From a virus, in IMG/VR virus record IMGVR_UViG_3300009826_000003, positions 2,081-66,080 of that record: DNA of 64,000 bases, one strand, 5' to 3'. The notes beneath the pieces are model-generated. The model did no database searches and was not told where the DNA came from. It was given only the letters and a program-made list of their open reading frames with translations. Shown piece after piece: positions 4,543 to 41,832 of the stretch; positions within the stretch are counted from its first letter, which is position 1, and every line of letters begins with the position of its first letter. The position numbers and the translations under genes were made by a program.

Positions 4543-5711
4543 ACTATTATGATCGTTTTCGCTTTTGTATCGAAGACGTGCATGGCAACATTGTTGCCAG
4601 AGATGTTGTGGGACAAGAGGTTAAAATCAACCGCGCGCTTAGTGGTCCGTCCGAAATCAGCATGAAGCTGCATCCGAAAGAGCCTAGTATTCAACAACTT
4701 TCAGGCGCGGGACCAATTCAGTTGAAACCGTGGGGCCACTGGATACATGCCTTGAAATACAACCAATTTGGCGAAGAGGTGTTTATAGCGTCTTGTATCA
4801 TGGAACCAAGCGAAATAGAGCCAGAGACAGGTATATTGAATTTGCGCGCAAAGGGTTTCACCAACTATGCGAAAGGCATCCCCTGGCTACAGAATTGGAA
4901 TCCCATTGCTGTTGATCCTTTTGAAATAATGGATCGCATTTGGAAGCACATTCAGAGTTATCACAATGCCGCGCTTGGGGTTTCAGTGTATCCGGCATCA
5001 AGTGGAACACTTATGTTGCCGGGATGGAGCTTTAACAATGAGCAATTCATTCAGGACTTTTTCGCTATATTCATTCGCGCCTCTGATAAAACAGACTGTG
5101 GCGAATACATTGAAAAGCTGGCGCGCGACATCCCTTTCGATTATGTCGAAGAGAGTGGATGGAATGAAAATAGGACGGCAATTAAAAAGGGAATTCGATT
5201 AGGGTATCCAAGCGGCGGAACAAAGCAACATGGCCTTGCATTTCGGAGGGGAGAGAATGTCACTGTGGCCGCGCCGAAATTAGAGTCAGAAGTGGAATGG
5301 ATGTCTGACATCATTATCGACGGATTTTTCCCTGGAAAGACTTACAGCGCAACGATTTCCAACTATGACCCTGACCGATTCCGACGTGTGATGAACGAAA
5401 TGGATTTGAGAATTGATTCGAATGAGCGCGCAGCGGCATGGGCCAAAAGGAAATTGACACGAAGGCAATTCCCTTATCAATATGAATCTCTATTTATTGA
5501 CCCTTACCATCCGAATGCACCATTTGGGACATTTGACGTTGGCGACGAAATTCTAATTGAGGGCAATATGCCTTGGGTCGGAGAAGGGATAAAACAATGG
5601 CATCGAATAATGGGGATGTCTTGGGATGAAACGAAAAAGGATGGACGGTTAGGATTGGCAGTAATGGCAGAAGGTGCATTTAACTACGATCCGATTGTGT
5701 ATATAAAATGA
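4527..5711 (+). CDS. Minor tail protein (baseplate hub/Tal-like)
   Basis: Second gene after TMP, ~394 aa. Synteny only. Confidence 0.65.
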   Translation: MANPIDYYDRFRFCIEDVHGNIVARDVVGQEVKINRALSGPSEISMKLHPKEPSIQQLSGAGPIQLKPWGHWIHALKYNQFGEEVFIASCIMEPSEIEPETGILNLRAKGFTNYAKGIPWLQNWNPIAVDPFEIMDRIWKHIQSYHNAALGVSVYPASSGTLMLPGWSFNNEQFIQDFFAIFIRASDKTDCGEYIEKLARDIPFDYVEESGWNENRTAIKKGIRLGYPSGGTKQHGLAFRRGENVTVAAPKLESEVEWMSDIIIDGFFPGKTYSATISNYDPDRFRRVMNEMDLRIDSNERAAAWAKRKLTRRQFPYQYESLFIDPYHPNAPFGTFDVGDEILIEGNMPWVGEGIKQWHRIMGMSWDETKKDGRLGLAVMAEGAFNYDPIVYIK

Positions 5712-8700
5712 CTACTCTATTTGGTGGACCTGGCTTTGGTGGTGGCGGGACTATGCCACCGACGCGAGAAGCAAAAGCGTTGGCGGCTATTGATTCTCGC
5801 ACGCAGACTTTCGTCAATCAGGATTTTGTCCGAAACATTCAGTGGCTCAACAATTCTGTGGACACATTATCCGCTTACACACAGAAATTGCAACAGGGAG
5901 TGGACGCTGCAAATCAAAATGCATTAGAGCAATTGCAGGGAATTATCGCTGATCTAATTGTGATATTCGCAGGCGGAACACCAACGGGAATTGATTTGGG
6001 AGACCTCAAATACATTTTCCAAGCATTAGGGACTTTGTTAGGTATCAACCCTGATACTGTATTTCCGCTGAATCTTATTGAGGCAGCAGGGAATCTGTTT
6101 CGCCAATTCATTGTTCCTTTACCGCAATTCACGGACATTATATTTGACGCAATGGAATTATGGTTGGAAAGGTTTGGGTTTTCCGACGAAGCAATCGAAG
6201 CGGTCAGGGAATTCAATGATGCTGTGACCGATTTATATTTTGGCATAACGGATTTTACGTCTGGCATCATTCCCGCTCTGAATCGACTATTAAAGCAAAT
6301 AGGACTTGGATTCGGTTGGTTAGACCTCACTCTATTACGCAGGCTTGTGGATGACCTCCGCGCGAAAATTCAGAAGTTGTTAAGTGGCCCAAGGGATTTC
6401 CTTTTGAATATCTTGAGCATCTTGATAACAACTGTATTTAAAGCGATGACGTGGTTGGTCAATTTGATTAATCCACGAAACCTTATGCGTAGCTTGGGAT
6501 TAGAGAGCTTGGGACCGGACCTAGCGCCGAATATCTCTGACCTGACAACCATTTGGCAAGTAGGCTCAAATCCAAATACGCAATGGGTATTTGACGCTAC
6601 ACAATGGAGTCCTGGCACGCCTCTTGAAGATTTGGTTAATGGTCGCGGTCAAGGATCGTTTAGGACTATCGGAAACGCTTATGGCAAAAGGATTTTGACG
6701 CAAGGTACTGAAACCTGTACTCCTGGTGAGACTTTCGCGTTTAGTGGTTGGCTGAGATGGCAAGGTGTTGCTACTCATCAGAATCAATGGGGGCCATGTA
6801 TTGTCTTCTATGCCGGTCTAAATGAAATAGAGCAACAGAATATTGATGCGCCATCTGATCGCGAAACTGATGGCGGTTGGTTACAGGTTGGCCGAAACAT
6901 CATAGTTCCCAACAACGTTGACGGCTTTAAGCTTGGCTATCGTTGTGGTGCGCAGGTCGGAGCAGGGACCATTTGGGGCGGAACACTTACTTGCTCGAAA
7001 TTGTCGCTTGGTCTCGAATTCAGTTTGTTTAACCTATTTGTACCGTGGAATATCTTTAAGAATATTCCCTCACTTGGCGACCTCTCTATTGGTGGCGTAA
7101 ACGCTTGGCTCAAAACGTTTTTGACCTCTCTTAGTCCGCTGAATGCCAACAATATATATGGATTCATTCCCGACAATTTGTTAGCGAAAGTTCCGATTGC
7201 TAGCCTATTCGCTGGCCAGACTGAGCTTTTGATGCATCCCGGCTTCGACAATTTGAATACCCTTGAGGGACAAGGTGTTTGGCACCATGATGAAAACATA
7301 GGCCATTCGAAATTTGGCTCTGTGTATGTGGATTGCGACGGTACGCTAAAGGAATTGTATAACCGCAACATAATTCCGGTTGAGGCGAAGCAAGGTTTTA
7401 CCTGGCGCGTCTGGGTACGCTGGCAAGCTTTAGGTGGATTTTCCACTAATCCTGCTTGTATCGTAATTCAGGAATACGCAGACGACGAATGCGAAGAATT
7501 TGTTGCTGAAAAGACAATGAACTTTGCAGGCGGAACAGGGCCGAACAGCGGTTGGCAACAGATGACATCGAATTACACTGTGCCGCAAGGTGTTTCGATG
7601 ATTAAGTACAAATTGCAGGTGAAAGCGTCTGCGACCTCTGGACGTGTATGGTTCGATGACGCAAGCGGAAAGCGGACTAACCTCCTTGGTTGGAACTTGA
7701 TTGACAGTCTCGAAAGTGCTTGGAGCGCTTTGATTTCCGCGCTTAGGGGATGGACATTCAACTTTGGTGATGGCTTGTCTGGTCTGTGGGAAAGCATTAC
7801 AGACATTGCAGCGCGCTTCCGAAACCTGTTGCCTACAGGGTGGTTTGACGCTTCTTGGCTGACAAACATATTCAACATCCCTAGCTTGTCTGACCTCAGT
7901 GTACCTGGTGTATTGACCCTTGTTGACAATATTACCACTGGAATATTCGGTTGGGCCGGATTTGGATTTAGACATGAAGATTCAAAAGAAGCGTTGGAAT
8001 CAATACGAATTCGGATGGAACAACATTCAACAGCACTTGAATCCTTTTTGGCAAAAGAGTCTAGCGGCTTTGTTATTGAGGACAATTTCCGAAGGAATGG
8101 AAACAATTTAGATAACTCTAAATGGTCACAAATGTATGCTGGTTCAAGCGGCAGATACGAAACACGAATAGACAGAGGCGCGGTCTGGAATACTGGATCA
8201 GGTATTACGCACGGAACTTTCATTTGGATTGGTAATGCGCCATCTACCCAAACACAAAGCAATTACCAGGATGTCGGATTAGTGTTGAATAGCGCAAACC
8301 ATGTAAGTTGGGCGGGTAGTAGGTGGGGATCAGTTGAGGTTGTATGTCGATTTCAAGGTGGCCCAAACAATGCAAACGATTTTGTGAAATTCCGCGTAGA
8401 AGGTAATCGTGAATGGTTTTTAATGAGATACAATGGCGGAATTCAAAGGCAGGTAGCAAATGGCAAATTGTCATTCACACCAAATGCCGGAACGTTTGTC
8501 CGAATTATGGCTGGCGACATGGCAATTGGAGACCAGCGCATTTTCAGATGCTTTGTCGGATTAGAGAAGATTTATGATTGGCCTGATGTTGGCCAGGTAA
8601 CAACAATGGGACCGACGGCACGCGGAGTTGGATTTGGCGCAAGCGCATATGATGGGTTATTTACAAGCCAACAAGCGCCAGCAGGTATTTCGCTATTCGT

Positions 8701-14298: not shown

Positions 14299-14866
14299 TC
14301 CAACTATTAGGCAACAAACGGTAATTCGTGGACGCTCTGGTCCTACCGGCCCAATTGGTGTGCCATTGGAAAATCCACTTTCTGAATTAGAAATGAATGA
14401 GGATGTCGCGCTATATGTCGGAATGCTGGAAGGGCAATTAGCAGCGTATGCAATTAATGAGGTCAAATATCGCACGCTATTGGAAATGCTGACCGGCAAA
14501 CCGTGGGACGCGACTATGGTTGATGTTGACTCAAATGTGTTGGTAGACATCGCATCTCAGGCTTTAATCAGGCGCGGAATGGATGGTGTAGAAGCCAGAA
14601 CAACTGTAATGCGCAGATTCCAACGCGCGGATAATTCGCCCACACAACCTCCGGCAATGCCGGTCAATATCCCAACGCATGTACCGCTGGAAGAGCGTTA
14701 TCGTGAATGGCAGAATCGCAGGCGCGGAAGACTTCCCATGTCTAATGCACCAGGACCGGAATATGTCAATCCTGTTGGCGCGCAACGGTTTTCAGCACCA
14801 GAGCCGGAACCTGTTGTGCCACAAGAGGATTCGCCAGAGCCAGAGGAAAAGCGGACCAAATCTTAG
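14291..14866 (+). CDS. Hypothetical protein, last gene of rightward operon
   Basis: 191-aa ORF overlapping the previous stop. Confidence 0.7.
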   Translation: MTDPTIRQQTVIRGRSGPTGPIGVPLENPLSELEMNEDVALYVGMLEGQLAAYAINEVKYRTLLEMLTGKPWDATMVDVDSNVLVDIASQALIRRGMDGVEARTTVMRRFQRADNSPTQPPAMPVNIPTHVPLEERYREWQNRRRGRLPMSNAPGPEYVNPVGAQRFSAPEPEPVVPQEDSPEPEEKRTKS

Positions 14867-14881
14867 GTTCGCAAGAGGGAC

Positions 14882-14946
14882 AAAAAAAAGCGCGCCAGGC
14901 GAAATCATCTCCGGGGAAACGAAATCGCTTGGCGCGCTTGGTTTTT
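14882..14946. terminator. Bidirectional intrinsic terminator
   Basis: A8 tract, AAGCGCGCCAGGCGA/TCGCTTGGCGCGCTT stem, then GGTTTTT; lies between convergent operons. Confidence 0.8.
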
Positions 14947-15142
14947 AGTGATTGTCGCAAATCCACTCTCTGCATTCTAGGAGCGTTCTGCCTGTGTATT
15001 CGATGATACCGAAATAGACCACGCGCCAAGCGATTTCGCCATTATGACGAATTCGGATAACGTCGCAACCTTCTACCATCCAGTGACCAGGCTTGACGCA
15101 TCTTTGCTCCAAACCTGCTAAGCCATAAGACTTTTCACTCAT
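14945..15142 (-). CDS. Small hypothetical protein (array gene)
   Basis: 65 aa, start directly after repeat RBS. Confidence 0.75.
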   Translation of the reverse strand: MSEKSYGLAGLEQRCVKPGHWMVEGCDVIRIRHNGEIAWRVVYFGIIEYTGRTLLECREWICDNH

Positions 15143-15218
15143 TCACTTTCCACCCTCTTCCTGTCCTAGTTGGACAACACCAAACAGGTTGTGCGCCAAC
15201 CTGTTTGATGCAATGCAA

Positions 15219-15452
15219 CTAGCCTCGCGCGTTACGCTCAGCTATAGCGCGATCTAGGCACGCTCCGTAATCACCTGGCACTCCGCACCAGTGACAAGGT
15301 GCTGGTTGTGCTAAGCGCTCCGCCTCCGTGCGAAGCTGATTAGCGGTCCAACTGCAATTGCCAGGGAAGGGATAACCGTATTCCTTTCCTAGCTCTTCCA
15401 GCAGGATAGCGGCCTGAATCATACGCTCTGGCAAGGCTTTTCGGTTACTCAT
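15219..15452 (-). CDS. Small hypothetical protein (array gene)
   Basis: 77 aa with C-terminal CxxC; TAG stop is the CTAG of repeat 1. Confidence 0.75.
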   Translation of the reverse strand: MSNRKALPERMIQAAILLEELGKEYGYPFPGNCSWTANQLRTEAERLAQPAPCHWCGVPGDYGACLDRAIAERNARG

Positions 15453-15454
15453 GG

Positions 15455-15706
15455 TTAAACTCCCTTCGAGTAATACCGAATGTTGGTGTGCTCAAACAAT
15501 TGTCGCAAGCCTAACTCCGAAAGTTCAAGAGTTAGAACAAGATTCGCGAACAGGTAGTCTTTGTCATAAAAGACATAAGACGTGTGAATGTCACACTTGG
15601 CCCTATTCACCAGATCGCGATTGATCCACTGAATCATCAACCCTTTGTTGGCATTCCGCGTGAACGGTGGAATGTCTTTAGGGTCAACCCTTTTCACTGT
15701 ATCCAT
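15455..15706 (-). CDS. Small hypothetical protein (array gene)
   Basis: 83 aa, start after repeat 2 RBS. Confidence 0.75.
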   Translation of the reverse strand: MDTVKRVDPKDIPPFTRNANKGLMIQWINRDLVNRAKCDIHTSYVFYDKDYLFANLVLTLELSELGLRQLFEHTNIRYYSKGV

Positions 15707-15780
15707 GATTCCATCCTCTCTTTCTGTCCCTAGTGGACAACGCCAAACCTGTTGGCTAGCAACAGGTTTGACGCAATCAA

Positions 15781-16065
15781 CTAGCGAACCGCATTCGCAG
15801 CTTTGAATTCGACTGCGTTGTTTGCGATTTCGTTTGCCTTCTGGTGTAAGTCATCCGGCAAACGTTGGCCCATCCGACCAAGCGCGGAAACTGCGAGGTC
15901 AATTGCACCTCTTAGCTTCCATCCAGACTGGCGAACTATGGCCTGTGGAGCGTAACTAGGCCGGTAATGAACCATGTTGTTACTGACACGATTGGCCAGC
16001 GCATTCAGTTCTGCCACAATAACTTTCGCGGCCTGCTCTTCGAATCCTTCTGGAATGTATACCAT
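15781..16065 (-). CDS. Small hypothetical protein (array gene)
   Basis: 94 aa, bounded exactly by repeats 2 and 3. Confidence 0.8.
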   Translation of the reverse strand: MVYIPEGFEEQAAKVIVAELNALANRVSNNMVHYRPSYAPQAIVRQSGWKLRGAIDLAVSALGRMGQRLPDDLHQKANEIANNAVEFKAANAVR

Positions 16066-16139
16066 TTTTCCATCCTCTTTTCTTGTCCTTAGCGGACAAC
16101 ACCAAACCCCTTGACTAGCAAGGGGTTTGATGCACTCAG

Positions 16140-16343
16140 CTAAGAACTAGCTTCACCTTCGGGCGAAACGCCAACGTACAGAGTCCTTTTCAGTGGTCCC
16201 TGTCCGCTGTGGTCGATTCCTCCGACCCAACCGGCAACCCAACCTTTCGGAAGGTCGAATGCCAAGTTGTAATCGCTTTCGCGAAATGCGACTTTGTAAC
16301 TGGCACAAAGCTTTTGGAGCGTTTCACGCTGTTTCGGATTCAT
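16140..16343 (-). CDS. Small hypothetical protein (array gene)
   Basis: MNPKQRETLQ..., 67 aa; GGAGG RBS and ATGA overlap; stop in repeat 3. Confidence 0.75.
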   Translation of the reverse strand: MNPKQRETLQKLCASYKVAFRESDYNLAFDLPKGWVAGWVGGIDHSGQGPLKRTLYVGVSPEGEASS

Positions 16344-16543
16344 ACCGATTTCACCTCCGCCTGTCCCAAACCACAAGCGCGCAAGAACCTTTCGCGGTCA
16401 AAGCGCGGATTGTCTGATTTGAATTTAGCGGCCAGTTGGTTAGCGATTGCTTCAATGGCTTTATTTGAGTCACTGAATTTCAAATCGCTTGCCAGCTTTA
16501 TGATTTGAGCAATTTGCTCGAAATCCCTTCTGGTAACTGCCAT
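16340..16543 (-). CDS. Small hypothetical protein (array gene)
   Basis: MAVTRRDFEQIA...DNPRFDRERFLRACG, 67 aa, after repeat 4 RBS. Confidence 0.8.
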   Translation of the reverse strand: MAVTRRDFEQIAQIIKLASDLKFSDSNKAIEAIANQLAAKFKSDNPRFDRERFLRACGLGQAEVKSV

Positions 16544-16632
16544 TTCAATCCATCCTCTCTTTCTGTCCCTAGTGGACAAGACGAAAACCCTTGCGAAACA
16601 AGGGTTTTCATCCAATCAACTAGTGATTTGTG

Positions 16633-16881
16633 TTAGCGGCAATCGTCCCGCAAAACAGGGTTGACATCAGGGACAAGTGACACAACGATTTTCGTTTCGA
16701 CGCGAAAACCTTTGGCCTTCACCTGTTCTAGATGATGAACCGCATTGCGCAAGTGTAATGCACTGGCGCGCTGGCGATCTCGAACATGAGTGAATCCTTC
16801 ACTCTCTGCCCTGTCCGCTTCGCAATCCAAAGCAACCGACAAATCGGTTGCGTTGATGTCGAATGCATATTGAACACTCAT
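16633..16881 (-). CDS. Small hypothetical protein (array gene)
   Basis: MSVQYAFD..., 82 aa, after repeat 5 RBS. Confidence 0.75.
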   Translation of the reverse strand: MSVQYAFDINATDLSVALDCEADRAESEGFTHVRDRQRASALHLRNAVHHLEQVKAKGFRVETKIVVSLVPDVNPVLRDDCR

Positions 16882-16954
16882 TTTTCCATCCTCTTTTCTT
16901 GTCCTAACGGACAACACGAAAAGCGTTCTGTATGAACGCTTTTCGTGCACTCCG

Positions 16955-17383
16955 TTAGGGAGTTAGTGCGCGATACCGACCCATTGCGACCCTACGCGCG
17001 TAACCCAATTTGATTAGCGTGTAGCATCTTTGGCCAGCAGCACTAGATGAAATATTCAAATGGCGTCCTAGTGCGTTAAGGTGAACGCCCACCTCGCAAT
17101 CATTCTCCGCGAGGTATTCCCAAGCGTCATACTGTGACCTGTTAAGCGCTCCATCGTGCGGAGTATGCACACCAGGCCGCGTACCCTTCGAAATGGGTTG
17201 TAACGCTTGCGGTTTCGGGTCATCCACTTCTAGCGTCACTCTCTGCCTACCCTGAAAAGGGTTGGCCTGTAACGCTATACGCTGCTCAGACTGTAACGCG
17301 CGGATAAAATCCAGCGCAGCTTGAGCTTCACCATTCGAAATATCAAGTGTCACGTCACCTTTGGCGTTGACGGTAACCTTCAA
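16955..17383 (-). CDS. Putative DNA-binding protein with C-terminal winged HTH
   Basis: LNRSQYDAWEYL...LGRHLNISSSAAGQRCYTLIKLGYARR; TTG start after GAAAGGGATGGAATA. Confidence 0.65.
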   Translation of the reverse strand: MKVTVNAKGDVTLDISNGEAQAALDFIRALQSEQRIALQANPFQGRQRVTLEVDDPKPQALQPISKGTRPGVHTPHDGALNRSQYDAWEYLAENDCEVGVHLNALGRHLNISSSAAGQRCYTLIKLGYARRVAMGRYRALTP

Positions 17384-17534
17384 TATTCCATCCCTTTCTA
17401 TCTGAAATCTGACCATCAGCATTGATGGCCTGTCCTAGCGGACAAGACCAAACCCCTTGACTAGCAAGGGGTTTGATCCAGAGCGCTAGGCTCTTACCCT
17501 GTCGATTCCTCAAATCGACTGTAGGAGAACAACT

Positions 17535-18677
17535 TTAGGACTTGGCCGCTACTAGCTCAGGCCGGTCTAGAACCTTCGCCAGTGCAATCACGCTCTTTTG
17601 GTCAACCTCTCCAAACTGACCGCGAATTGCCTTATCCAAGTTACGCTCCACACGATTACCCTTTACCGTCCGGTAGTGAGTTTCGTATGTGTTGAGCGCT
17701 TGCACTACACCTAGAGCAGTACCACGCCATTGTGCCGACATTGGATCACGATGGTAAGTGTGGTTAAGCACTTCCCTTTTGTTTTCCGCAATCGACATTT
17801 TGCGCTTGGTTGTCTCTGGGTCTTTAGCGTCGGGCATAGGGAAGATTTCATTCATCACCTTTACCCATTGCTGCGTAGTGACCGGAATAGATGCCAATTC
17901 GTGTAGCTCATCCATCATGGCATCGTTCGTCTGGTGAATGATCCTTAGCGCTTGCCGCACGTCTTTAATCCTGTTGTAATCCAAGGACTTTGACGTGTGA
18001 CGTGCCTTGTAAATTCGACCTGACGATTCCGCCTGGTGAAGCGCTGCGTTTCTGGTGTTATCGCAAACAACGTAAAGCGTTTGACCGCTGAAAGTTGTTG
18101 GGATAGAACCATCTAACGAAGTGCTTCCCATGATGTATGGCCAGAATTCCGCGCCTGTGGTCTCATCGTGCGAAGTCTCCGGTAAGGCTACTTGCACGAA
18201 AGCTTGAGCACCATTGCGAAGCAAACCAGCGCCAAGGATGGTCAGAGTATCGCCAATTACGTTGGCCTGCAATTGCATTAGCCATCTTTCGTAATTGTGA
18301 ATGCGGTACTCATCGCTGTGGTGGCCTAGCTCAAGGTGGTTGTCACTTCTAACAACACCTTGCATGTCAGGTACCACAACGATTTTGACCGGCTGACCTT
18401 GCTTGAAGTCTTCACCTCCAAGCGAAAGGTCTTGTGGCAGAAAGAAATTCGCATCCTTTCGTTCACAAGGCACCAGGTTTGCCGTAGGAACGGACATTGG
18501 CGTCCAAGGGAACAGACGCTCTTTAACCGTTTTGTAGGGTATTGGCCCTTCAAAGTGGTTGGACGGCAACCCAAGCCGCTCGCGCAGCTCTGGGTTATCG
18601 TGCCATGCCTTCGGTCGATTCGCGCAGTTCCCAACCAAGATAAACTCATTGAGCCACCTTGAGGTTTCCTGTGACAT
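17535..18677 (-). CDS. DUF932 / TIGR03299-like phage-plasmid protein
   Basis: VVRSD...Y.IHNY, AGLLRNGAQAFVQV, STSLDGS...VVCDNT...HT pattern. Start moved to ATG 18677. Confidence 0.7.
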   Translation of the reverse strand: MSQETSRWLNEFILVGNCANRPKAWHDNPELRERLGLPSNHFEGPIPYKTVKERLFPWTPMSVPTANLVPCERKDANFFLPQDLSLGGEDFKQGQPVKIVVVPDMQGVVRSDNHLELGHHSDEYRIHNYERWLMQLQANVIGDTLTILGAGLLRNGAQAFVQVALPETSHDETTGAEFWPYIMGSTSLDGSIPTTFSGQTLYVVCDNTRNAALHQAESSGRIYKARHTSKSLDYNRIKDVRQALRIIHQTNDAMMDELHELASIPVTTQQWVKVMNEIFPMPDAKDPETTKRKMSIAENKREVLNHTYHRDPMSAQWRGTALGVVQALNTYETHYRTVKGNRVERNLDKAIRGQFGEVDQKSVIALAKVLDRPELVAAKS

Positions 18678-18754
18678 ATCGTTATTCTCCAATCTATCTG
18701 TGCGCCAATGGAATTGGCGACTTTTCACGCGAACCGTGTAAGTGGCCGCGCTAG

Positions 18755-18930
18755 TGGCTGTAGCCAGATTCGAACTGGCCCAAGGCTTTTCGGCTCTTGT
18801 TCCTAATCCGCTCTTATTTGGCTTCTAAGCCTTCGGAGCGTCTGTCAGGTACTAAGACCCTTGGACGCTCCGAAAACGGCTCAGAAGCGCTCTCAGGCCG
18901 GTCTAATGGCCTGTTTGGAGCGGTACAGCC
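18755..18930 (-). ncRNA. 176-nt tRNA-like RNA with large structured insertion
   Basis: Acceptor GGCTGTA/TACAGCC, T-arm GCCAG-TTCGAAT-CTGGC, nested internal helices; fills the intergenic gap. Confidence 0.8.
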
Positions 18931-18939
18931 AGCAGCAGG

Positions 18940-19428
18940 TTACTGCTGCATGTTGAGATGACCTTTGGCAAGACGGAGAAGCGAATTGTATTCATCCCGC
19001 TTCTCTTTGGGAACTTCAATGTAGTTACCCATACCAACCACGAAACGCCAAAGACCTTCCAGCACAACAACTTTCTCTCTAGCTTTCATTTTCGGATAGC
19101 TAGGTGAACGGTTGTATGAACGTCGCGCGAAGCGCTCCGTTTCTTTGGCTTCCGCTATCACCAGGTCAATCAGTTGCCTTCTGCTGTAGGACTTTTCGAG
19201 TCCCTTAGCAATGTGGTTGTCCCACAAGGCTTTCCATGCTTCGATGTCATCGCTGTTCCAGAAAGAGCGATTCTGAAACTCGAATTTCGCAGGGGGAGTA
19301 ACGATTTCGTCGTTTTTCCGCCACGAATCAATGATGACGGCATCTGCGCCGATTGCGCGCGAGATGTCATAAATCGAAAGCATGACAACTTCCTTACCTG
19401 TTGACAGGTCAGTGATTTTCTCTGCCAT
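18940..19428 (-). CDS. Hypothetical protein, possible N-terminal HTH (array gene)
   Basis: 162 aa, LSIYDISRAIGADAVIIDSWR; start after repeat 7 RBS. Confidence 0.7.
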   Translation of the reverse strand: MAEKITDLSTGKEVVMLSIYDISRAIGADAVIIDSWRKNDEIVTPPAKFEFQNRSFWNSDDIEAWKALWDNHIAKGLEKSYSRRQLIDLVIAEAKETERFARRSYNRSPSYPKMKAREKVVVLEGLWRFVVGMGNYIEVPKEKRDEYNSLLRLAKGHLNMQQ

Positions 19429-19512
19429 GTTTCCATCCCTTTCTGTCCCTAGATCGTTCGTCTAGCGGACAACACCAAAAGCGTTAGCCTGTAACGCTTT
19501 TGATGCAATCAG

Positions 19513-19692
19513 CTAGCTCACAAGCTGCTCAGCAGCTTCTATGGCTTGCTTCTTATTGGCGTAAGAGCCATTCATCAACTGGTGGCCCTTCCAGATACGC
19601 CAGAACTTTTTAGGCGATTGCATAACGTGGATGTCGTGCTTATCGTCATGCATTCCGCCCCAATGGTTTTCACGCCAAACGATGTTACTCAT
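19513..19692 (-). CDS. 59-aa protein missed by ORF track
   Basis: MSNIVWRENHWGG...AIEAAEQLVS; ATGA overlap; stop is the CTAG of repeat 7. Confidence 0.75.
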   Translation of the reverse strand: MSNIVWRENHWGGMHDDKHDIHVMQSPKKFWRIWKGHQLMNGSYANKKQAIEAAEQLVS

Positions 19693-19895
19693 TTTTGCGA
19701 TCCTTCCTCTTGTATCTGCTCCAAGAGACCGCGCAGGCGCGAATTCTCTTCTTGCAGAGCGGAAATGGATTCAGCACGTTCTTTCGCCCAAACGTGTTGC
19801 ATCACTTCCATTTCGTCTGGGTCGCTTGGGTCGAAATCAACACCAGGTACCCAACCGTCACCTTGGACATATTGCCCATCTTCCAGATACGGCAT
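19689..19895 (-). CDS. Small acidic hypothetical protein (array gene)
   Basis: MPYLEDGQ..., 68 aa, after repeat 8 RBS. Confidence 0.75.
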   Translation of the reverse strand: MPYLEDGQYVQGDGWVPGVDFDPSDPDEMEVMQHVWAKERAESISALQEENSRLRGLLEQIQEEGSQK

Positions 19896-19968
19896 TTTTC
19901 CATCCTCTCTTTCTGTCCTAGCGGACAAGGCCAGATACGTTGGCGCGCAACGTATCTCGCCCAATGCG

Positions 19969-20202
19969 CTAGACCGGGAGAAGGTCTTGGTATTCGTTAT
20001 GGTTCAATTCACCAAAAACGAAGCGCTGCATGGCTTTTGCAACGTCTATAGGCTTTCCGCCCATTGGAACGTCGCGACCATGCCCAAGCTCCCAACCATA
20101 ACCAGGCTGTTTGTACCAGATTTGGACGCGACCCTGACTCTCTAGGTGCATCACCTGGTAACGCCAACCTTCGGCATTCTTGAATTCAAGAAGTAGCCTC
20201 AT
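19969..20202 (-). CDS. Small hypothetical protein (array gene)
   Basis: MRLLLEFK..., 77 aa; RBS GAAGGGGATGGAAACC; stop in repeat 8. Confidence 0.75.
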   Translation of the reverse strand: MRLLLEFKNAEGWRYQVMHLESQGRVQIWYKQPGYGWELGHGRDVPMGGKPIDVAKAMQRFVFGELNHNEYQDLLPV

Positions 20203-20294
20203 GGTTTCCATCCCCTTCCAGTGATCCAATTTGAATCACCAACTAGGCCAAGGGATTTCGGTTGTGTAAGCTCGAAATCCCTTGGCAACATTGG

Positions 20295-20453
20295 TTATTC
20301 AACATCATCTTGATGCAGAAGGCGAATATCGTTGCTGTAGACCTTGATTGCTGGAAATTGTCCATTGTCGCCAGCATCCCAAAGAGCAATGTATTCGATA
20401 CCGTCGAACTTGATACGGTCACCTTCACGCACTTTCATTGCAAGTGCCATCAT
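20295..20453 (-). CDS. Small hypothetical protein (array gene)
   Basis: MMALAMKVREGDRI..., 52 aa, after repeat 9 RBS. Confidence 0.7.
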   Translation of the reverse strand: MMALAMKVREGDRIKFDGIEYIALWDAGDNGQFPAIKVYSNDIRLLHQDDVE

Positions 20454-20526
20454 GTTTTCCACCCTCTTTCTTGTCCTAGCGGACAACGCGAAACCCTAAC
20501 GCAGAGTTAGGGTTTCACGCAATCAG

Positions 20527-20760
20527 CTAGAAATCGTTTCTAGCGCAGGCGATTTCGTAACCTTCCATGTCTCCGATTTCGTCATCGTAGACAGAAGGGT
20601 TATCGCGCCAGTTGTCGCGCAACCGCTGACCAAAAGCGTTGTATTGCGCGTTGCACTCAGGGCAGGAAACGTCACCCTGACCACGGTACCGGGAAACTAT
20701 TGCGCCGCAAGCGCATTCCCATTCCGAATGTCCATCATCGAACCTCTTGACGTTGGCCAT
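20527..20760 (-). CDS. Small zinc-ribbon protein (array gene)
   Basis: CACG...CPECNAQYNAFGQRLR, 77 aa, bounded exactly by repeats 9 and 10. Confidence 0.8.
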   Translation of the reverse strand: MANVKRFDDGHSEWECACGAIVSRYRGQGDVSCPECNAQYNAFGQRLRDNWRDNPSVYDDEIGDMEGYEIACARNDF

Positions 20761-20840
20761 TTTTCCATCCTCTCTTTCTGTCCTAGCGGACAACCCCAAA
20801 CCCCTTCTCGCGGAAGGGGTTTCGGGCAATGCGCTAGGCA

Positions 20841-21437
20841 TTACGCGGCAACGAAGGCATCGCCAACCTGCGCCAGATGAATTTGCTTGTTAGCTTCCAT
20901 CTGGAATTCGCGCAGGCGACCCTTGCCGACGTGCGCCAGGCGCATAGGGATAAGAGCAATTCCCTTGAGCACCTTGGCATTCCGCCGCGCTTCGAAAAGT
21001 TCGTTGTCAATCACCATGAGGTCACCGGCAACAACGTTCTTAGCTGCTTTCCGAAGGTTCATTTTTCCATCTCCTTTTGGTTGGTGGTTGCGACGTTGTG
21101 CCACAACCTTTTTCGGCTCAGCCTTCTTAGGCTGTTCCTTTGGCTCTTCCTTCTCTAGACCCTTGACGCATGGGAAAATGTCTACGTCAGAACCGTATTG
21201 CTTGCGTCCTTCCTCATCGCTCAAATCCCAATCGCTGTAGTGATCGCTGTAAATAGCGTCCACAATTTCATCAGCGTTTTTGGCATCCAAGATCCAAGGT
21301 GCTCCGCAGGCGCGATCTTCAAGCACTGCCCAATGGTATTTGGGTTGCTTGATGTCTCGACAGTCTGGCGCGTGGACGTGCATTGCGCCGCGACCGAAGT
21401 TGATTCCGTTGGGGCCAAGTATCCGAACCTTAACCAT
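20841..21437 (-). CDS. Hypothetical two-domain protein with internal in-frame start
   Basis: MVKVRILG..., 198 aa; internal GGAGATGGAAAA-ATG at 21062. Confidence 0.75.
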   Translation of the reverse strand: MVKVRILGPNGINFGRGAMHVHAPDCRDIKQPKYHWAVLEDRACGAPWILDAKNADEIVDAIYSDHYSDWDLSDEEGRKQYGSDVDIFPCVKGLEKEEPKEQPKKAEPKKVVAQRRNHQPKGDGKMNLRKAAKNVVAGDLMVIDNELFEARRNAKVLKGIALIPMRLAHVGKGRLREFQMEANKQIHLAQVGDAFVAA

Positions 21438-21564
21438 TTTTCCATCCCCTATCTTGTCCACTGTCTAGCGGACAACGCCAGAAGCGTTGATTACCAACGC
21501 TTCTCGCGCAATCAGCTAGCTTCGAATCATCACCAGGCCAGCGTAACCAAGGCCGCGATTCTCA

Positions 21565-21663
21565 TTAATCGTCATGGCACCTGCACAGGCACCACTCATG
21601 CGTGCAGTTCTCATGCCCGTTCAATTCACAGACACGCTGGTCAAACTCCCGTTGTTCGTTCAT
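21565..21663 (-). CDS. 32-aa Cys/His-rich peptide
   Basis: MNEQREFDQRVCELNGHENCTHEWCLCRCHDD, directly after repeat 12 RBS. Confidence 0.55.
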   Translation of the reverse strand: MNEQREFDQRVCELNGHENCTHEWCLCRCHDD

Positions 21664-21739
21664 TTTTCCATCCCCTATCTTGTCTGCTGTTCTAGCGGAC
21701 AACGCCGAAATCGTTACCGTGGTAACGATTTCCGCGCAA

Positions 21740-21985
21740 TCAGCTAAACATTTCCTTCTCTAGTTGGAACCTGTCATCTTCGGCTTGCTGCGCCAGCGCC
21801 AATCGGAGTACCGATTTCCAGTTAGCGATTCTTGCTGCCTCTTGCATGTAAGAGCCGCAACCGTGACCGTGCATTTTCTCCGAAAGTGCTTCCAGCACAA
21901 GCATTTTGCTTACCCTCTGTTCGTTCTTTCGAGCGTTAACAGCGATAAAGTTTGCCATGACCTTAGCAGCTTCCATCTTTTTCAT
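21740..21985 (-). CDS. Small hypothetical protein (first array gene)
   Basis: 81 aa, RBS GGGGATGGAAAA; TGA stop inside repeat 12. Confidence 0.75.
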   Translation of the reverse strand: MKKMEAAKVMANFIAVNARKNEQRVSKMLVLEALSEKMHGHGCGSYMQEAARIANWKSVLRLALAQQAEDDRFQLEKEMFS

Positions 21986-22040
21986 TTTTCCATCCCCTAT
22001 CTGTAGGTTGCCGAAATAACCCTTCCGGCAAGGGAAGTGA

Positions 22041-22119
22041 GAGCCAAGGCCGGAATCGAACCGGCACAGGTAGGGCGATCATCTTCGCGGTACCTGCTTT
22101 CATCAGCGGCCACCAGGCT
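22041..22119 (-). ncRNA. 79-nt tRNA-like RNA with aberrant D and anticodon arms
   Basis: Acceptor AGCCTGG/CTTGGCT (one mismatch), T-arm GCCGG-TTCGATT-CCGGC, central helix CAGGTA/TACCTG. Confidence 0.65.
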
Positions 22120-22522
22120 AGCTCATGTCTAAGGGCGAATCTCATTGCGCCATCAAGCTTTTCAGTTGCGCTCATTGCCTAGCTGGATTGACTAGTTTGT
22201 CAGAACAACTGAAAAGCCAGAAGGCGCAACGGATTTCGCAATCCGTTGCACCCTTTGAGGGATAGAATGGAAAATATTTTCATCTACTACCTAGGGTCCG
22301 TTTCCGCTTCGCCTCTTTCGTCATCTTGCAGCTAGTCCCTTCGCGCGCAACCGCTTTCATCAGGAAACTCCGAATAGTGTTGGCTAGCTCCGCATCTCGC
22401 GGACCTTCGGCTTTCGACTCTGTTCAGTTCTCAAATTTCACGCTGACCCTGGCTGGCGGGGGAAGTTCGTCGGTCCCGTTTGCGCGGGGGAGAGGTTCGC
22501 GCCTCTCCTAACTTCCAACTAC

Positions 22523-29264: not shown

Positions 29265-30082
29265 CCGAATTGCCAAGTGAGATAGTACCTTTGGAGGCGG
29301 TAGCTCCGCATCCAAATATATTGGTGTATGCGAGAAGTGGAACAGGAAAAACGGTATTTGCCGGTAGTGATGATTCTGTTCTAATTCTCAACACTGAACC
29401 GGAGGGTGAGGTCTCCGCGCGCAACCTTGGGTCGAAGGCGAAGCAGTGGAAAATTCACTCTTCCAAAGACCTTGATAAAGTGTATGATTGGGCTATGTCC
29501 CTGGTCGAATCGGGCAAACGAATTCCGTTCAAGTGGTTTTGCTTTGACAGTCTAACTACTTACCAGCGAATTGATATGGACGAATTGTTGGAAGAGGGAG
29601 TAGCTATCAAATCGGCAAAAGACCCATTTGTACCGGAAATAAAGGACTACCTCAAAAATCAGCGCCGAATCGTAAGGCGCATAAAGGAATTCAACCAATT
29701 GCCGGTCAATATGCTGTATACTTGCCTGACAATGGATAAGGTGGACACCGAAGGAAACGAATTTGTATTTCCGCAAATTCACGGCAAGGATTACGAAGTC
29801 GCGGAACAGGTTTGCGCGTCTATGACCAGCTTTGGCTATCTGTTCACCAAACCGAAGACGAAAGTTGTTGATGGCCAACGGAAACGAATTGCTGGTATTG
29901 ACCGCTATATTCAATGGGAGACTATGCGGAATGTTCCTGGCAAAGACCGTACATTGGCCCTTGCGCCATACACAAAGCTACCGGAGCGGGATGCGCTCAA
30001 GTATATTAGGGAAAGGATGGAAAAGGCAGCAGCACAACACAATTCAGCAAATGGAACTGTGAAAATAGAAGGGAAAAAGTAA
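29261..30082 (+). CDS. AAA/RecA-like ATPase (Sak4-like recombinase)
   Basis: YARSGTGKT Walker A, FDSLT Walker B; sits between exonuclease and SSB-like gene. Confidence 0.8.
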   Translation: MTELPSEIVPLEAVAPHPNILVYARSGTGKTVFAGSDDSVLILNTEPEGEVSARNLGSKAKQWKIHSSKDLDKVYDWAMSLVESGKRIPFKWFCFDSLTTYQRIDMDELLEEGVAIKSAKDPFVPEIKDYLKNQRRIVRRIKEFNQLPVNMLYTCLTMDKVDTEGNEFVFPQIHGKDYEVAEQVCASMTSFGYLFTKPKTKVVDGQRKRIAGIDRYIQWETMRNVPGKDRTLALAPYTKLPERDALKYIRERMEKAAAQHNSANGTVKIEGKK

Positions 30083-30769
30083 ATGGTTAGAATGAAACCA
30101 AGTTTCGATGGCTCGAATGCCGCTCCGCCTGCCGGTGGTGGTATATACGATGGACCTCCGCCTACGCCTGGAATGTATACTGGCACAGTTGAAAAGATGG
30201 GACTGGCCAAAATCAATTCGGGTCAAAACAAAGGAGAAGATCGCATAGCGCTTTTGATCCGAATTTCGGAGGGGAAATTCACTGGCGCTGGTGTATTCCA
30301 TTCGCTGAATTTGATTCCGCAGAGCGCTTTCTTTATCAATCAATTTCTCCACGCCATGACTGATGGATCGCAACAGCAAAAAGCCGCGATTCTGAATATG
30401 TTTTACAAAAAGGGTTATGACGCTGAAAAAGACGAAGACGGCAAAATGGGCAGGCCAATAACGGTTATCGGAGCGAAATTCCGGCCTATCGGTCGCACTG
30501 TCAAATTTGTGACGGCAATGGATAAAGACCTATCAGGTGAACCGCGTGCCAAGATCAGCCGTTTCCTAGTGGCTGTGCCTGGTGGCGAAAGTGAGCTAGA
30601 AGCCACTGAGCCGGTCGATATGGTCGAAAGTGCTGATGGCATAGGCGAATTCGCGCCTGAGACCACCAGCAATCCGGTTGAGGAATCCGACGATGATCTG
30701 GAATCTGTTGAGCCAGAAGCCATTTCGGATATTGTTGACTTAGACGATGACGATGATCCTTGGGCATGA
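30083..30769 (+). CDS. ssDNA-binding-like protein (DUF669-like)
   Basis: PPTPGMYTGTVEK N-terminus; acidic tail ending DDDDDPWA. Confidence 0.65.
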   Translation: MVRMKPSFDGSNAAPPAGGGIYDGPPPTPGMYTGTVEKMGLAKINSGQNKGEDRIALLIRISEGKFTGAGVFHSLNLIPQSAFFINQFLHAMTDGSQQQKAAILNMFYKKGYDAEKDEDGKMGRPITVIGAKFRPIGRTVKFVTAMDKDLSGEPRAKISRFLVAVPGGESELEATEPVDMVESADGIGEFAPETTSNPVEESDDDLESVEPEAISDIVDLDDDDDPWA

Positions 30770-30803
30770 AATCGTCTGAGACATAACTAAATACAGTTAC
30801 GAT

Positions 30804-30848
30804 AGGGGGAGAGTAGCTTTTAGCTACCGGGCTACTCTCCCCCTTTAT
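30804..30848 (+). terminator. Hairpin/terminator
   Basis: Perfect 14-bp stem AGGGGGAGAGTAGC/GCTACTCTCCCCCT then TTAT. Confidence 0.6.
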
Positions 30849-30862
30849 AAAAGGGGAATGGA

Positions 30863-31138
30863 ATGGCGAATAAAGAGACTCCTATTCAAGTATTGTTGGC
30901 GCTTCCGCCCATTAAGATTGGCGATTTGGATGGCGTCGAATCTGTAAGCGACATTATCGAATTACTGGCAAAAGGCCAGCGGGACAACGCAGTTGAGCAA
31001 GAGTTAGAAGCAAAGAAACGTCTGATGGAAGTGTTCTCTTTGAGCCTTGACCGCATTTTGAATGACATACAAGACCCTTTCCAAAAAGCAAGTGCGCTAA
31101 GGGATTTGGCGCAGACTATGAGGAAATACTGTGATTAG
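30863..31138 (+). CDS. Hypothetical protein
   Basis: 91 aa with RBS. Confidence 0.65.
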   Translation: MANKETPIQVLLALPPIKIGDLDGVESVSDIIELLAKGQRDNAVEQELEAKKRLMEVFSLSLDRILNDIQDPFQKASALRDLAQTMRKYCD

Positions 31139-31280
31139 GAAAAAGACACGAACAGTGGACACCTATGGTAAATTGCCGTTTATAGGTAAAGAGGGGATCA
31201 CCTATTTTGTGGCAGATAGAAAGGAGCGGTTTGTGTGGCATAAAAAGGGCAAATGCTATGTGCAAGTTGAAAAGCAATGA
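31131..31280 (+). CDS. 49-aa hypothetical protein missed by ORF track
   Basis: GTG start; fills the gap; ATGA overlap with next gene. Confidence 0.55.
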   Translation: MIRKKTRTVDTYGKLPFIGKEGITYFVADRKERFVWHKKGKCYVQVEKQ

Positions 31281-31459
31281 GCGATTATAAAGAGTTTCCA
31301 CCAGAGGGCGAATGGAAAGTGATTCGGTCGGATGGCCTGAATCTTCCGCCCTTTGTGGTGATTCGCGAGGGCAAAACGTATCGGCGCTATATTGCGTATT
31401 TTGGCGCAAAGGCGGACGCTGATGAATATGTAATTTTCCTGAAAGGAAAAAAGGAGTAA
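31277..31459 (+). CDS. Small hypothetical protein
   Basis: 60 aa, TAATG overlap with dnaE. Confidence 0.65.
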   Translation: MSDYKEFPPEGEWKVIRSDGLNLPPFVVIREGKTYRRYIAYFGAKADADEYVIFLKGKKE

Positions 31460-32415
31460 TGCGTTATGTTTCATTACACACTCATACCACCTTTTCCTAT
31501 GGTGATGGTTATGGGACTGTGGCACAGCATGTTTCGCGCGTTGCGGACTTAGGGATGTCTGCGCTAGCTCTGACCGAACACGGCAACGTATCCAGTTGGG
31601 TACAGCTTGAAATCGCTTGCAAGAGAGCAGGAATCAAGCCTATCTATGGATGCGAAATCTACACTGGCCCAAGGGAAGTCAAAGAGAAGATAGGCCGCAA
31701 AACACATATGACGCTGTTGGCCGCGAATTCCGTTGGCCTGCAAAACCTTAACTATCTTGTGATGGAATCGTGGAAAACTCTTGGGCCAGACGCTAAATGG
31801 CCTTCGAAGTCGAAATTTCCTACTGTGCATTGGGAGAAGTTGAAAGAGAACGCGGATGGAATTATTGCGTTGTCTGGCTGTGCGGACTCTTTCCTATCAT
31901 GCGTCTTATTGGGCGGAAAGTCTTATGGCCCAAAGCGATTGGAATTGCGAGAGGGAGACCTCAAACGTGCAATTGACTATGCCCGGTTATACAAAGAAGT
32001 ATTTGGAGAGCGCTATTTCCTTGAGGTTCAGCGATTTCCTCGCCTTGAGCGCACTTGTGTACTTAATCCGGCCTTCGCGGAGATTTCCGAAATTGCCGGA
32101 ATTCCCCTTGCTGCTACAAGCGATGTCCATTATCCCTATCCAAACCAAAACGAAATGCAGCGCATATTGCACGCGGCGCATCGCGGCCAAACTGTCGAAA
32201 GTGCTGACGCCAGTTGGGAATACGGAGTGTTGCTGACCTATCCCGAATCCGACAGGGAAATCTTCAAAGACCTTGTGGCAACTGGACTTTCGAAAGAAAA
32301 AGCCAAGGGTGCTGTGTTGAACACAGAGCGAATTTCCGCGCTGTGTAACGTCGAACTTCCGAAGGTGCCTGTGGCGAAATACGTTGTGGGAGAAGGTGAT
32401 TGGGAACCGTGGTGA
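31459..32415 (+). CDS. dnaE: DNA polymerase III alpha, N-terminal PHP domain (split gene, part 1)
   Basis: YVSLHTHTTFSYGDG, ALTEHGN, KPIYGCE, ATSDVHY. Confidence 0.92.
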   Translation: MRYVSLHTHTTFSYGDGYGTVAQHVSRVADLGMSALALTEHGNVSSWVQLEIACKRAGIKPIYGCEIYTGPREVKEKIGRKTHMTLLAANSVGLQNLNYLVMESWKTLGPDAKWPSKSKFPTVHWEKLKENADGIIALSGCADSFLSCVLLGGKSYGPKRLELREGDLKRAIDYARLYKEVFGERYFLEVQRFPRLERTCVLNPAFAEISEIAGIPLAATSDVHYPYPNQNEMQRILHAAHRGQTVESADASWEYGVLLTYPESDREIFKDLVATGLSKEKAKGAVLNTERISALCNVELPKVPVAKYVVGEGDWEPW

Positions 32416-34745: not shown

Positions 34746-35335
34746 GTAAGGGTCACTCGAAGCGCTCCGCGCGGAAGGGTCGCGGCCAGAAGGCCAGGGC
34801 CACAACGAAAGTCGCTCAGCGTGGCTCTGAGGGCCAGCAAGCGACCACTCCGCGTGGAGATGAGCAGGTCAGGAAGGGGGCAGAGGTCGCGAAATCGCCT
34901 GTGGCAGAAGAGCTTTCGCCAGAGGACCAGGCCGCAGCGACTCAGCGCATGGCGGAGGTCTTCAAAGCGCTTGCTTCCGCGCCTGAAGGCTTTTTGCCTA
35001 TGCTGGAAAGATTAGAGGTCAATTATCAGATTGTTCCGCTTTCCGCTGAAAGCGCGCAGACTGTTCTATTCGAAGTCTCTGAAAGTGACTCTGACTCAAT
35101 GTATTTGGTGGTCAAGATGACTGACCTAATAGAAGGCGAAGAGCGAAATCAAAAACAAGGTTCGCTGCTGGATCGCTTGTCTGTCGAGAAACCTGGTGAT
35201 AAGGTAGCTAAATTGGCAAAACGGTTGTCTGGCTTCGGAATTCGGTCGGATGTTTTTGGACTGAATGCCGACAATCTGCCAAAACCTGTATGGGACAAGA
35301 TAATTGGAGAGGATCAAAAAGAAGGTGACTGCTAA
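34742..35335 (+). CDS. Hypothetical protein
   Basis: 197 aa, GTGA overlap. Confidence 0.7.
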   Translation: MSKGHSKRSARKGRGQKARATTKVAQRGSEGQQATTPRGDEQVRKGAEVAKSPVAEELSPEDQAAATQRMAEVFKALASAPEGFLPMLERLEVNYQIVPLSAESAQTVLFEVSESDSDSMYLVVKMTDLIEGEERNQKQGSLLDRLSVEKPGDKVAKLAKRLSGFGIRSDVFGLNADNLPKPVWDKIIGEDQKEGDC

Positions 35336-35702
35336 TCCAAATCCGCACAATACTTTACGGAGGGTGCGTGGATCAGCTAGTCTTTACCGTTGTGTAGACT
35401 GCGGAAAGCAAGCGCGGGATTGGTCGCATACTCATAAAACAGACCCAGATGATATAGACAATTATCATCCACGTTGCGCTATTTGTCATAAACAATACGA
35501 TAAAGAATCGTATTGGGAGAATGAAGAGTATAGAAAGAAACAATTGGCAATGCCGCAACGTCAAAGCTCTTTATCTGAAGATCAAAAAGAGCAATTGGTG
35601 ACATTGTATGCTACAGGTAAGTACACGCAAAAACAATTGGCAGAAAGGTTTGGAGTATGTCAGAAAACGATCTCTATTTGGACAAGAAAAGGGAAAAGAT
35701 AA
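35325..35702 (+). CDS. HNH endonuclease-like protein with C-terminal HTH
   Basis: RCVDCG...WSH...NYHPRCAICHKQYD; YTQKQLAERFGVCQKTIS. Confidence 0.75.
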   Translation: MTANPNPHNTLRRVRGSASLYRCVDCGKQARDWSHTHKTDPDDIDNYHPRCAICHKQYDKESYWENEEYRKKQLAMPQRQSSLSEDQKEQLVTLYATGKYTQKQLAERFGVCQKTISIWTRKGKR

Positions 35703-35878: not shown

Positions 35879-35970
35879 ACTGGAATATCGTCTATCATAT
35901 CGCTAACGCAATTAACGCAATCGCCGTTATCTATCTTCTGATAGAAAGGCATTTTAGAGAATGGAAATAA
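35875..35970 (+). CDS. 31-aa membrane peptide missed by ORF track
   Basis: MNWNIVYHIANAINAIAVIYLLIERHFREWK; ATGA overlap. Confidence 0.55.
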   Translation: MNWNIVYHIANAINAIAVIYLLIERHFREWK

Positions 35971-35976
35971 AAAGGA

Positions 35977-41830: not shown

Positions 41831-41832
41831 GC

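Follow-up and report, generated by a model that had tools for sequence, protein, structure and literature searches.

Intergenic hairpin elements with two mutually exclusive folds beside the ribosome-binding sites of an early-type phage operon

The stretch of DNA analyzed here, which we call the window, comprises 64,000 nucleotides (nt) and corresponds to bases 2081–66080 of the IMG/VR phage record IMGVR_UViG_3300009826_000003, a 71,237-base-pair (bp) genome of an uncultured phage known from metagenomic sequence, with terminal repeats and a guanine-plus-cytosine (GC) content of about 47–48%. Between positions ~22,175 and ~14,945 of the window the minus strand carries a block of some 19 small genes read leftward, while the remaining genome is on the plus strand. 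This block is an early-type operon, and 12 of its intergenic junctions contain one copy each of a hairpin element, always on the minus strand, whose 3′ arm can take part in either of two folds just ahead of the ribosome-binding site (RBS) of the next gene. Junctions without the element fall into three classes: some have stop and start codons that overlap, two hold tRNA-like structures, and one has a hairpin pair of different sequence (20200–20296). Pfam and PHROG searches identify among the block products one DUF932 protein and otherwise small proteins without assigned function, and they place a replication module composed of a helicase, an exonuclease, an annealing protein, a DNA polymerase, and a primase among the plus-strand genes that follow the block; no RNase and no RNA-binding protein was matched by these searches in the block or the replication module. 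Searching IMG/VR with the 142-amino-acid (aa) and DUF932 proteins of the block returned no relatives.

All elements share the same order on the minus strand. They begin with a 5′ arm of 13 nt and continue with a GC-rich stem-loop, of different sequence in each copy, and a 3′ arm holding an invariant UUGUCC; the sequence GGACA, a purine-rich leader, and the start codon follow. The leader holds a conserved RBS motif, GGATGGAA followed by 2–5 nt and the start codon, which is conserved both in the window elements and in the mycobacteriophage Cuke. The 13-nt arms flank a covarying stem-loop of ~33 nt and pair to form a weak lower stem with mismatches, above which stands a strong, freely covarying upper stem; the whole is a long hairpin of ~25 bp with conserved mismatches and a variable loop of 4–5 nt. 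In the second fold, UUGUCC pairs with the adjacent GGACA to form a small hairpin; the lower stem of the long hairpin uses UUGUCC too, so an RNA can adopt only one of the two folds at a time. An initial annotation of this DNA had proposed that the 3′ arm of all 12 copies can pair downstream with GGACA in a fold that excludes the long one; when checked copy by copy, all of the features it described were present. Its description of the loop as GCTA holds in part, given that the pairing does span a short loop but the loop is not always GCUA: copies 5, 6, 8, 9, and 10 have 4-nt loops and copies 1–4 have 5-nt loops.

Copy 1 (15140–15223, minus strand, as are all others) forms its long hairpin at 15165–15223 and its small hairpin at 15161–15177, with the start codon at 15142 and the upstream stop codon, TAG, inside the stem base. 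Copy 2 (15704–15786) has its long hairpin at 15728–15786, its small hairpin at 15724–15740, and its start at 15706, and copy 3 (16063–16145) has them at 16087–16145, 16083–16099, and 16065. The stop precedes the stem by 12 nt in copy 4 (16541–16625; long hairpin 16567–16625, small hairpin 16563–16579, start 16543). Copy 5 spans 16879–16960 (long hairpin 16902–16960, small hairpin 16899–16914, start 16881). Copy 6 (17381–17491; long hairpin 17433–17491, small hairpin 17430–17445) has an extra 8-bp hairpin, a TTG start at 17383, and a stop 47 nt before the stem. Farther into the block lie copy 7 (19426–19517; long hairpin 19461–19517, extended small hairpin 19443–19472, start 19428), copy 8 (19893–19973; long hairpin 19917–19973, small hairpin 19913–19928, start 19895), copy 9 (20451–20532; long hairpin 20474–20532, small hairpin 20471–20486, start 20453), and copy 10 (20758–20839; long hairpin 20781–20839, small hairpin 20778–20793, start 20760). 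Copy 11 (21435–21520; long hairpin 21464–21520, small hairpin 21454–21475, start 21437) has its stop 48 nt before the stem, and copy 12 (21661–21748; long hairpin 21691–21748, small hairpin 21680–21702, start 21663) uses a TGA within the 5′ arm. Copies 1–11 all read UUGUCC, loop, then GGACA followed by A or G. Three copies carry insertions, which had been said to preserve the small fold, and they do: the 13 nt inserted in copy 7 lengthen the helix to 5+5 bp with one bulge, copy 11 keeps UUGUCC/GGACAA within a 9-bp stem, and copy 12 keeps UUGUC/GACAA and adds an inner GCU/AGC (5 bp + 3 bp).

Comparison with relatives makes us certain that the long hairpin is a real RNA structure, as compensatory double changes occur at 17 of its 20 pairs among 28 aligned copies from three phage lineages. 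The covariance model built for it (R1) represents the long hairpin alone and does not include GGACA. R1 has exactly 12 matches in the 71,237-bp genome, 17 in G001, an IMG/VR phage contig of 32.7 kb and 53% GC, and four in the Rhodococcus phage RGL3 (63% GC), for a total of 33; each of the other cluster CA Rhodococcus phages has three weaker orthologous copies, and no match was obtained in 1.35 Mb of unrelated viral DNA. G001 and RGL3 were revealed by a scan of IMG/VR with a 15-mer core that otherwise returned mostly chance matches. Two strict DNA patterns and a relaxed one found no convincing further member in genome and metagenome collections, scans with an SAS 14-mer and with a G001-type arm pattern gave chance matches only (with 0 R1 matches in 1.35 Mb), and a BLAST search of one element against an annotated phage collection had a single, weak match, in RGL3. 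The element family was not matched by Rfam at the gathering score in the 64-kb window, ARAGORN made no calls on the window, and a literature search found no description of the element or of tRNA-like punctuation in mycobacteriophages. Since no protein is common to the three lineages (the window phage, G001, and RGL3, with 48, 53, and 63% GC), the invariant core is probably read by host machinery, or the RNA acts alone.

The relatives also show features of their own. Three of the four RGL3 elements have CTTGACA-N-TAGA in the upper stem and loop (locus L104, record positions 40,875–42,997); this motif, which is retained in the cluster CA orthologues, contains a perfect −35-like hexamer without a −10 at normal spacing. 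In many G001 copies (3,200–7,400) another hairpin stands after the small hairpin and before the RBS, a feature shared with copy 6 of the window, and the leader seems to have a slot that accepts extra stem-loops.

Because the 12 window copies are paralogous, their agreement on the small hairpin counts as one observation, and evidence beyond chance was drawn from the insertions and from the relatives. Given the variable loops, pairs were counted per loop class and with a structure-aware script, and loops were re-optimized in a test that swapped tails between copies. One G001 copy (G001:2072–2129) has UGUUC with GAACA downstream, changing a C-G pair to U-A, and one RGL3 copy has UGUAC with GUACA downstream, changing C-G to A-U. 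Both double compensations fall on the same small-hairpin pair and are not explained by the long stem, because that position is a mismatch in the long hairpin. Two other G001 copies have a C-to-U change facing G, and yet another has lost both motifs and forms a new 6-bp hairpin at the corresponding position. Apart from these, the 3′ half varies in the window phage and G001 only by A-to-G changes facing U and by one G to A in the decayed first GGACA of copy 12. Across the window phage and G001 (30 copies), the inner four pairs of the small hairpin show no disruptive change, the replaced copy excepted. Paired cells make up 93–94% of the small-hairpin register versus 25–55% in slid registers, with one double-compensated pair per loop class. 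Of 2000 shuffled tails, 38, 28, and 2 did as well as the three informative variants, the last count being for the replaced 6-bp hairpin. For the insertions, random inserts fold as well as the observed ones in 2.5% of trials for copy 11, 7–13% for copy 7, and 11–21% for copy 12, with the caveat that part of the extension in copy 7 is automatic because its duplicated CTAG is self-complementary. As copies with an altered UUGUCC carry matching downstream changes, we consider it probable that selection maintains the small fold as an RNA structure.

A number of observations weigh against this conclusion. The covariation of the small hairpin consists of few events, its motif being highly conserved; the shuffle controls are modest, with 37 of 500 and 58 of 500 shuffles doing as well as the real copies; and the tail-swap test gives p of about 0.02 when canonical pairs are counted and 0.08 when only Watson–Crick pairs are. 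Outside RGL3, several of the orthologous elements in cluster CA phages form the small hairpin weakly or not at all; in those phages the small fold is decayed. Finally, Cuke conserves the leader that starts at the ACA of GGACA, after its own hairpin and without UUGUCC, so that part of the conservation of GGACA needs no pairing. The modest controls, the cluster CA orthologues, and the Cuke leader favor the view that the fold is incidental, with GG closing or flanking the long stem, ACA starting the conserved leader, and the complementarity to UUGUCC having no function. We think this view rather unlikely, as it does not account for two double compensations at a long-hairpin mismatch, for the complete replacement hairpin, for four inner pairs that stay undisrupted in the window phage and G001 outside the replaced copy, or for insertions that preserve or strengthen the fold and its distance from the AUG.

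The same variants bear on whether TTGTCC-N4-GGACAA acts instead as a palindromic operator in double-stranded DNA, bound by a phage repressor. Four copies are near-perfect 6+6 palindromes, and actinobacteriophages are known to have protein sites repeated between their genes (PMC3203893, PMC4351075): the L5 stoperators and the 17-bp palindromes of cluster O resemble the elements in that a short motif recurs many times in the intergenic DNA of a single genome, and the cluster EG palindromes might be compared as well. The L5 and cluster O sequences are DNA sites of fixed spacing, a third of the cluster O sites lying inside genes (PMC3203893, PMC4351075), whereas the spacing here varies from 4 to 18 nt, the loop length range of the small hairpin, the changes are ones that preserve RNA pairing, and every copy lies in a transcribed hairpin. 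Neither fixed half-site spacing nor a maintained symmetry nor sites at promoters were found among the elements: A-to-G changes facing T break the DNA symmetry and preserve the RNA pairing, mirrored changes occur in single copies within one genome, and the orientation always follows transcription. The window has no copy of the palindrome outside the elements or near promoters (even TTGTCC-N4-GGACA has no exact occurrence elsewhere), and the three lineages have no DNA-binding protein in common. An operator is therefore extremely unlikely.

Folding predictions, on which all energies and pairing probabilities given here rest, indicate when each fold would form. In an RNA truncated to start at UUGUCC, nearly all copies form the small hairpin with −6.6 to −8.5 kcal/mol, and the extended versions reach −11.9 (copy 11) and −13.4 kcal/mol (copy 7). 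In the full-length RNA the lower stem is preferred by 4–10 kcal/mol, so the small fold needs a trigger, although it already dominates in copies 1, 9, and 11 when upstream context is included. When the 5′ arm is made unavailable, the probability of the small hairpin is about 1.

One trigger could be the upstream ribosome. The stop codon of the preceding gene lies inside the stem base in 8 of the 12 copies, 5 nt upstream of it in copy 10, 12 nt in copy 4, and about 47 nt in copies 6 and 11, so the claim in the initial annotation that the stop sits at the base of the long hairpin stands for eight copies and nearly so for two more but fails for copies 6 and 11. Across the three lineages the stop falls between −12 and +6 nt from the stem base in 26 of 28 copies. 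Where it occupies positions 1–6 of the 13-nt 5′ arm, a terminating ribosome should, judging from established footprints, cover that arm, whose length matches such a footprint. The geometry is thus compatible with the proposal that termination frees the 3′ arm to refold, and blocking the arm is just what drives the small hairpin to form in the predictions. The further step, in which the ribosome flips the element as a translational coupling switch that is needed for, or strongly stimulates, the next initiation, is unlikely in our judgment. The Shine–Dalgarno (SD) sequence is already open in the long-hairpin fold, with a mean unpaired probability of 0.84 in the free RNA, and with the 5′ arm blocked it remains open in 11 of 12 window copies (0.71–0.99; 0.50 in copy 12). 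Since the SD sequence is open in both folds, an upstream ribosome unmasks nothing, so coupling by SD unmasking is not supported. Copies 6 and 11 retain the hairpin despite their distant stops, and in Cuke the tRNA-like elements also abut the stop without an alternative fold, so adjacency to the stop may be mere compaction. The earlier idea that each element links expression of a gene to that of the previous one is thus not borne out.

The predictions point instead to a relation between the released arm and the RBS. If the 5′ arm is blocked and GGACA is masked as well, SD accessibility drops from ~0.9 to ~0.4 in 11 of 12 window copies, with the freed UUGUCC pairing to the GGAUGG RBS in the window phage and to GACAA just before the AUG in G001 and RGL3. 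UUGUCC is more complementary to the RBSs of the elements than to other RBS-like sites (−5.1 versus −3.4 kcal/mol in the window genome and −5.1 versus −3.7 in G001; p of about 0.003–0.004, a value inflated by paralogy). In this model the small hairpin shields the RBS from the released arm. The small hairpin ends 14–19 nt before the AUG in 11 of 12 window copies, and in the three insertion copies the long stem ends 27–33 nt from the AUG while the small hairpin still ends 14–16 nt from it. A bolder version would treat UUGUCC as an anti-RBS held by two decoys, the 5′ arm and GGACA, forming a three-state unit of translational control. We regard this as quite improbable; if true, the entire early operon would be shut off by one trans factor, a protein or a small RNA, masking either GGACA or the small hairpin, and the unit would explain why start-associated motifs are conserved in actinobacteriophages beyond the needs of rRNA pairing.

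Attenuation between genes provides another way to view a structure with two folds. The upper stems are GC-rich, and in G001 and the window phage a stretch partly rich in U comes after them, such that the elements might be intrinsic terminators with the small hairpin as anti-terminator or as an alternative to the terminator. A lenient rule that looks for a GC-rich stem and a U-tract passes two of the 12 copies and fails ten, U-tracts are missing from the RGL3 copies, the U-rich stretch is taken up by pairing within the covarying lower stem, and the upper stem faces no competition from the small hairpin, all of which makes this very unlikely. A promoter was also considered and rejected, as none of the 12 elements has a sigma-70-like site.

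The two junctions with tRNA-like structures occupy punctuation slots in which R1 finds no hairpin element. The first, at 22036–22125 (minus strand), lies before the first genes of the operon and has a cloverleaf-like fold with a canonical T-arm. The second, putative one, at 18755–18930 (minus strand), is the only long junction without a hairpin element; a T-arm and an acceptor strand are visible in the sequence, after which come small hairpins and then the RBS belonging to the DUF932 gene. Small hairpins precede the RBS at both junctions, and neither structure is called by ARAGORN or Rfam. A third junction, 20200–20296 (minus strand), between the 52-aa and 77-aa genes, looks like an element but is unrelated in sequence and is not detected by R1: a long hairpin in two parts has a UAA stop at its base and is followed by a small hairpin and an RBS. 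Its fold has a z score of −4.6, and 0 of 200 shuffles fold as well. An alternative 8-bp pairing at this junction would also employ the 3′ arm of its lower stem.

Weak DNA similarity, which includes the region of the DUF932 gene, ties the block to mycobacteriophages such as Cuke (MG757156). In the leftward operon of Cuke (record positions 29,800–39,000), 12 of 13 gaps contain a stop codon, an unannotated tRNA-like mini-structure with a canonical GGTTCGATTCC-type T-arm, a hairpin of 8–10 bp, an A-rich spacer, and an RBS motif, AGGATGGAA plus 2–3 nt and ATG, which is the motif of the window. In Cuke the hairpin is similar to the upper stem found in the window elements, the leader matches the window leader from ACA on, and the helix ends 14–27 nt before the AUG. 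The two operons are thus homologous by DNA similarity and alike in RBS motif, leader, and a helix near each AUG. They differ in that the window elements have no T-arm, with the lower stem standing in place of the tRNA-like part, and in that only the window elements have an overlapping alternative fold; R1 has no match in Cuke. None of the 12 elements has the acceptor-like stem on a T-arm with a GTTCRANYC loop that marks a t-element, and within the window T-arms occur only at 22036–22125 and 18755–18930. The order of parts in Cuke, with a tRNA-like element, a hairpin, and the same RBS motif, favors a role as processing punctuation in which every cistron has a hairpin at its 5′ edge. By analogy, the Cuke operon and the two tRNA-like junctions, in which a punctuation element, a small hairpin, and an RBS follow one another, lend indirect support to a 5′ hairpin left by a nuclease cut.

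We hypothesize that the elements act as RNA, as intercistronic punctuation marks of an early polycistronic mRNA, by a cut, capture of the released arm by GGACA, and formation of a structured 5′ edge, a reading that we hold to be plausible though short of probable. The lower stem would be opened, most likely by endonucleolytic cutting of the long helix by a host-encoded enzyme of the RNase III type, and transiently also by a ribosome terminating on the embedded stop. The freed UUGUCC would then pair with the adjacent GGACA, and the resulting small hairpin would give the downstream cistron a structured 5′ edge, protecting it against 5′-end-dependent decay, and would hold the pyrimidine-rich arm off the purine-rich RBS. 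The small hairpin would thus serve as a backup or holding helix that keeps each RBS open and not as a switch that ties a gene to its upstream neighbor. Caution is called for in this reading: the intact RNA is predicted to prefer the lower stem, the pairing of UUGUCC to the RBS is 3–7 kcal/mol weaker than the small hairpin and may never matter, and RNase III is an enzyme that we name by analogy only.

The analogy is to the early region of phage T7, in which Dunn and Studier reportedly described RNase III processing sites (R0.3 to R1.3). Those sites are irregular hairpins of about two turns with an internal loop, located between genes of the early transcript, from stop codon to RBS. The elements share the structural features of such sites: they lie between cistrons without a promoter of their own, every copy between a stop and the next RBS, and they form an irregular hairpin of at least 20 bp, here ~25 bp with conserved mismatches. 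The sequences are unrelated, the hosts here are actinobacteria, and the elements are known from sequence and predicted folds; we know of no T7 RNase III site that offers a mutually exclusive second hairpin for the downstream product. The putative processed end can be likened to the 5′-terminal stabilizer hairpins of the ompA type, in which a short hairpin stands at the 5′ end of the mRNA. In both cases 5′-end-dependent RNases would be stopped by a short hairpin placed at the extreme 5′ end, directly before the RBS; here the 5′ end is hypothetical, and the hairpin would form only after processing or release of the arm.

Among actinobacteriophages, repeats tied to translation starts are known as start-associated sequences (SAS) and extended SAS (ESAS) in cluster K mycobacteriophages and cluster EF Microbacterium phages and as 18-bp inverted repeats in cluster EG (PMC3203893, PMC7302621). 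SAS is a 13-bp conserved RBS motif, GGGATAGGAGCCC or GGGAAAGGACCCC, and ESAS consists of imperfect 17-bp inverted repeats with a 4–13-bp spacer, for which the authors saw little support for an mRNA hairpin (PMC3203893, PMC7302621). The likeness lies in inverted repeats that precede a conserved motif overlapping the RBS in unusually long intergenic gaps, and the distance of the 18-bp EG repeats from the start codon, 14–22 bp (PMC7302621), resembles that of the small hairpin here (14–19 nt). The window elements carry neither the SAS/ESAS motif nor the 17-bp ESAS repeats; their RBS motif is based on GGATGGAA, their 13-nt arms enclose a covarying stem of 10–15 bp, covariation is strong, and no alternative fold has been described for SAS/ESAS. 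To our knowledge, no function has been assigned to SAS/ESAS or to the EG and O palindromes since 2011.

Several other features of the window were observed beside the elements. A long GC-rich inverted repeat at 14866–14945, flanked by an A-run and a T-run, lies between convergent plus-strand genes and the end of the minus-strand block and is probably a bidirectional terminator. Within the 198-aa open reading frame (ORF) at 20841–21437, a perfect copy of the RBS motif (21062–21076, minus strand) precedes an in-frame ATG at 21062, 125 codons in, which suggests that the ORF holds a shorter nested product or that the gene was mis-joined. Two plus-strand ORFs that overlap, 31459–32415 and 32400–34745, encode the DNA polymerase and match consecutive parts of phrog_405, reflecting either a split gene or a frameshift.

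The element family is the first start-associated actinobacteriophage repeat with clear RNA covariation and a competing fold beside the RBS, and it is linked to tRNA-like punctuation in a homologous mycobacteriophage operon. Because members of the family or its homologs occur in culturable phages (RGL3 and cluster CA phages on Rhodococcus, and Cuke on M. smegmatis), the ideas of processing, protection, and insulation are directly testable. If our reading is true, the elements would show how actinobacterial phages cut and stabilize their early polycistronic messages and would provide a compact, portable module of stop, insulator, and RBS for multi-gene expression in these hosts.

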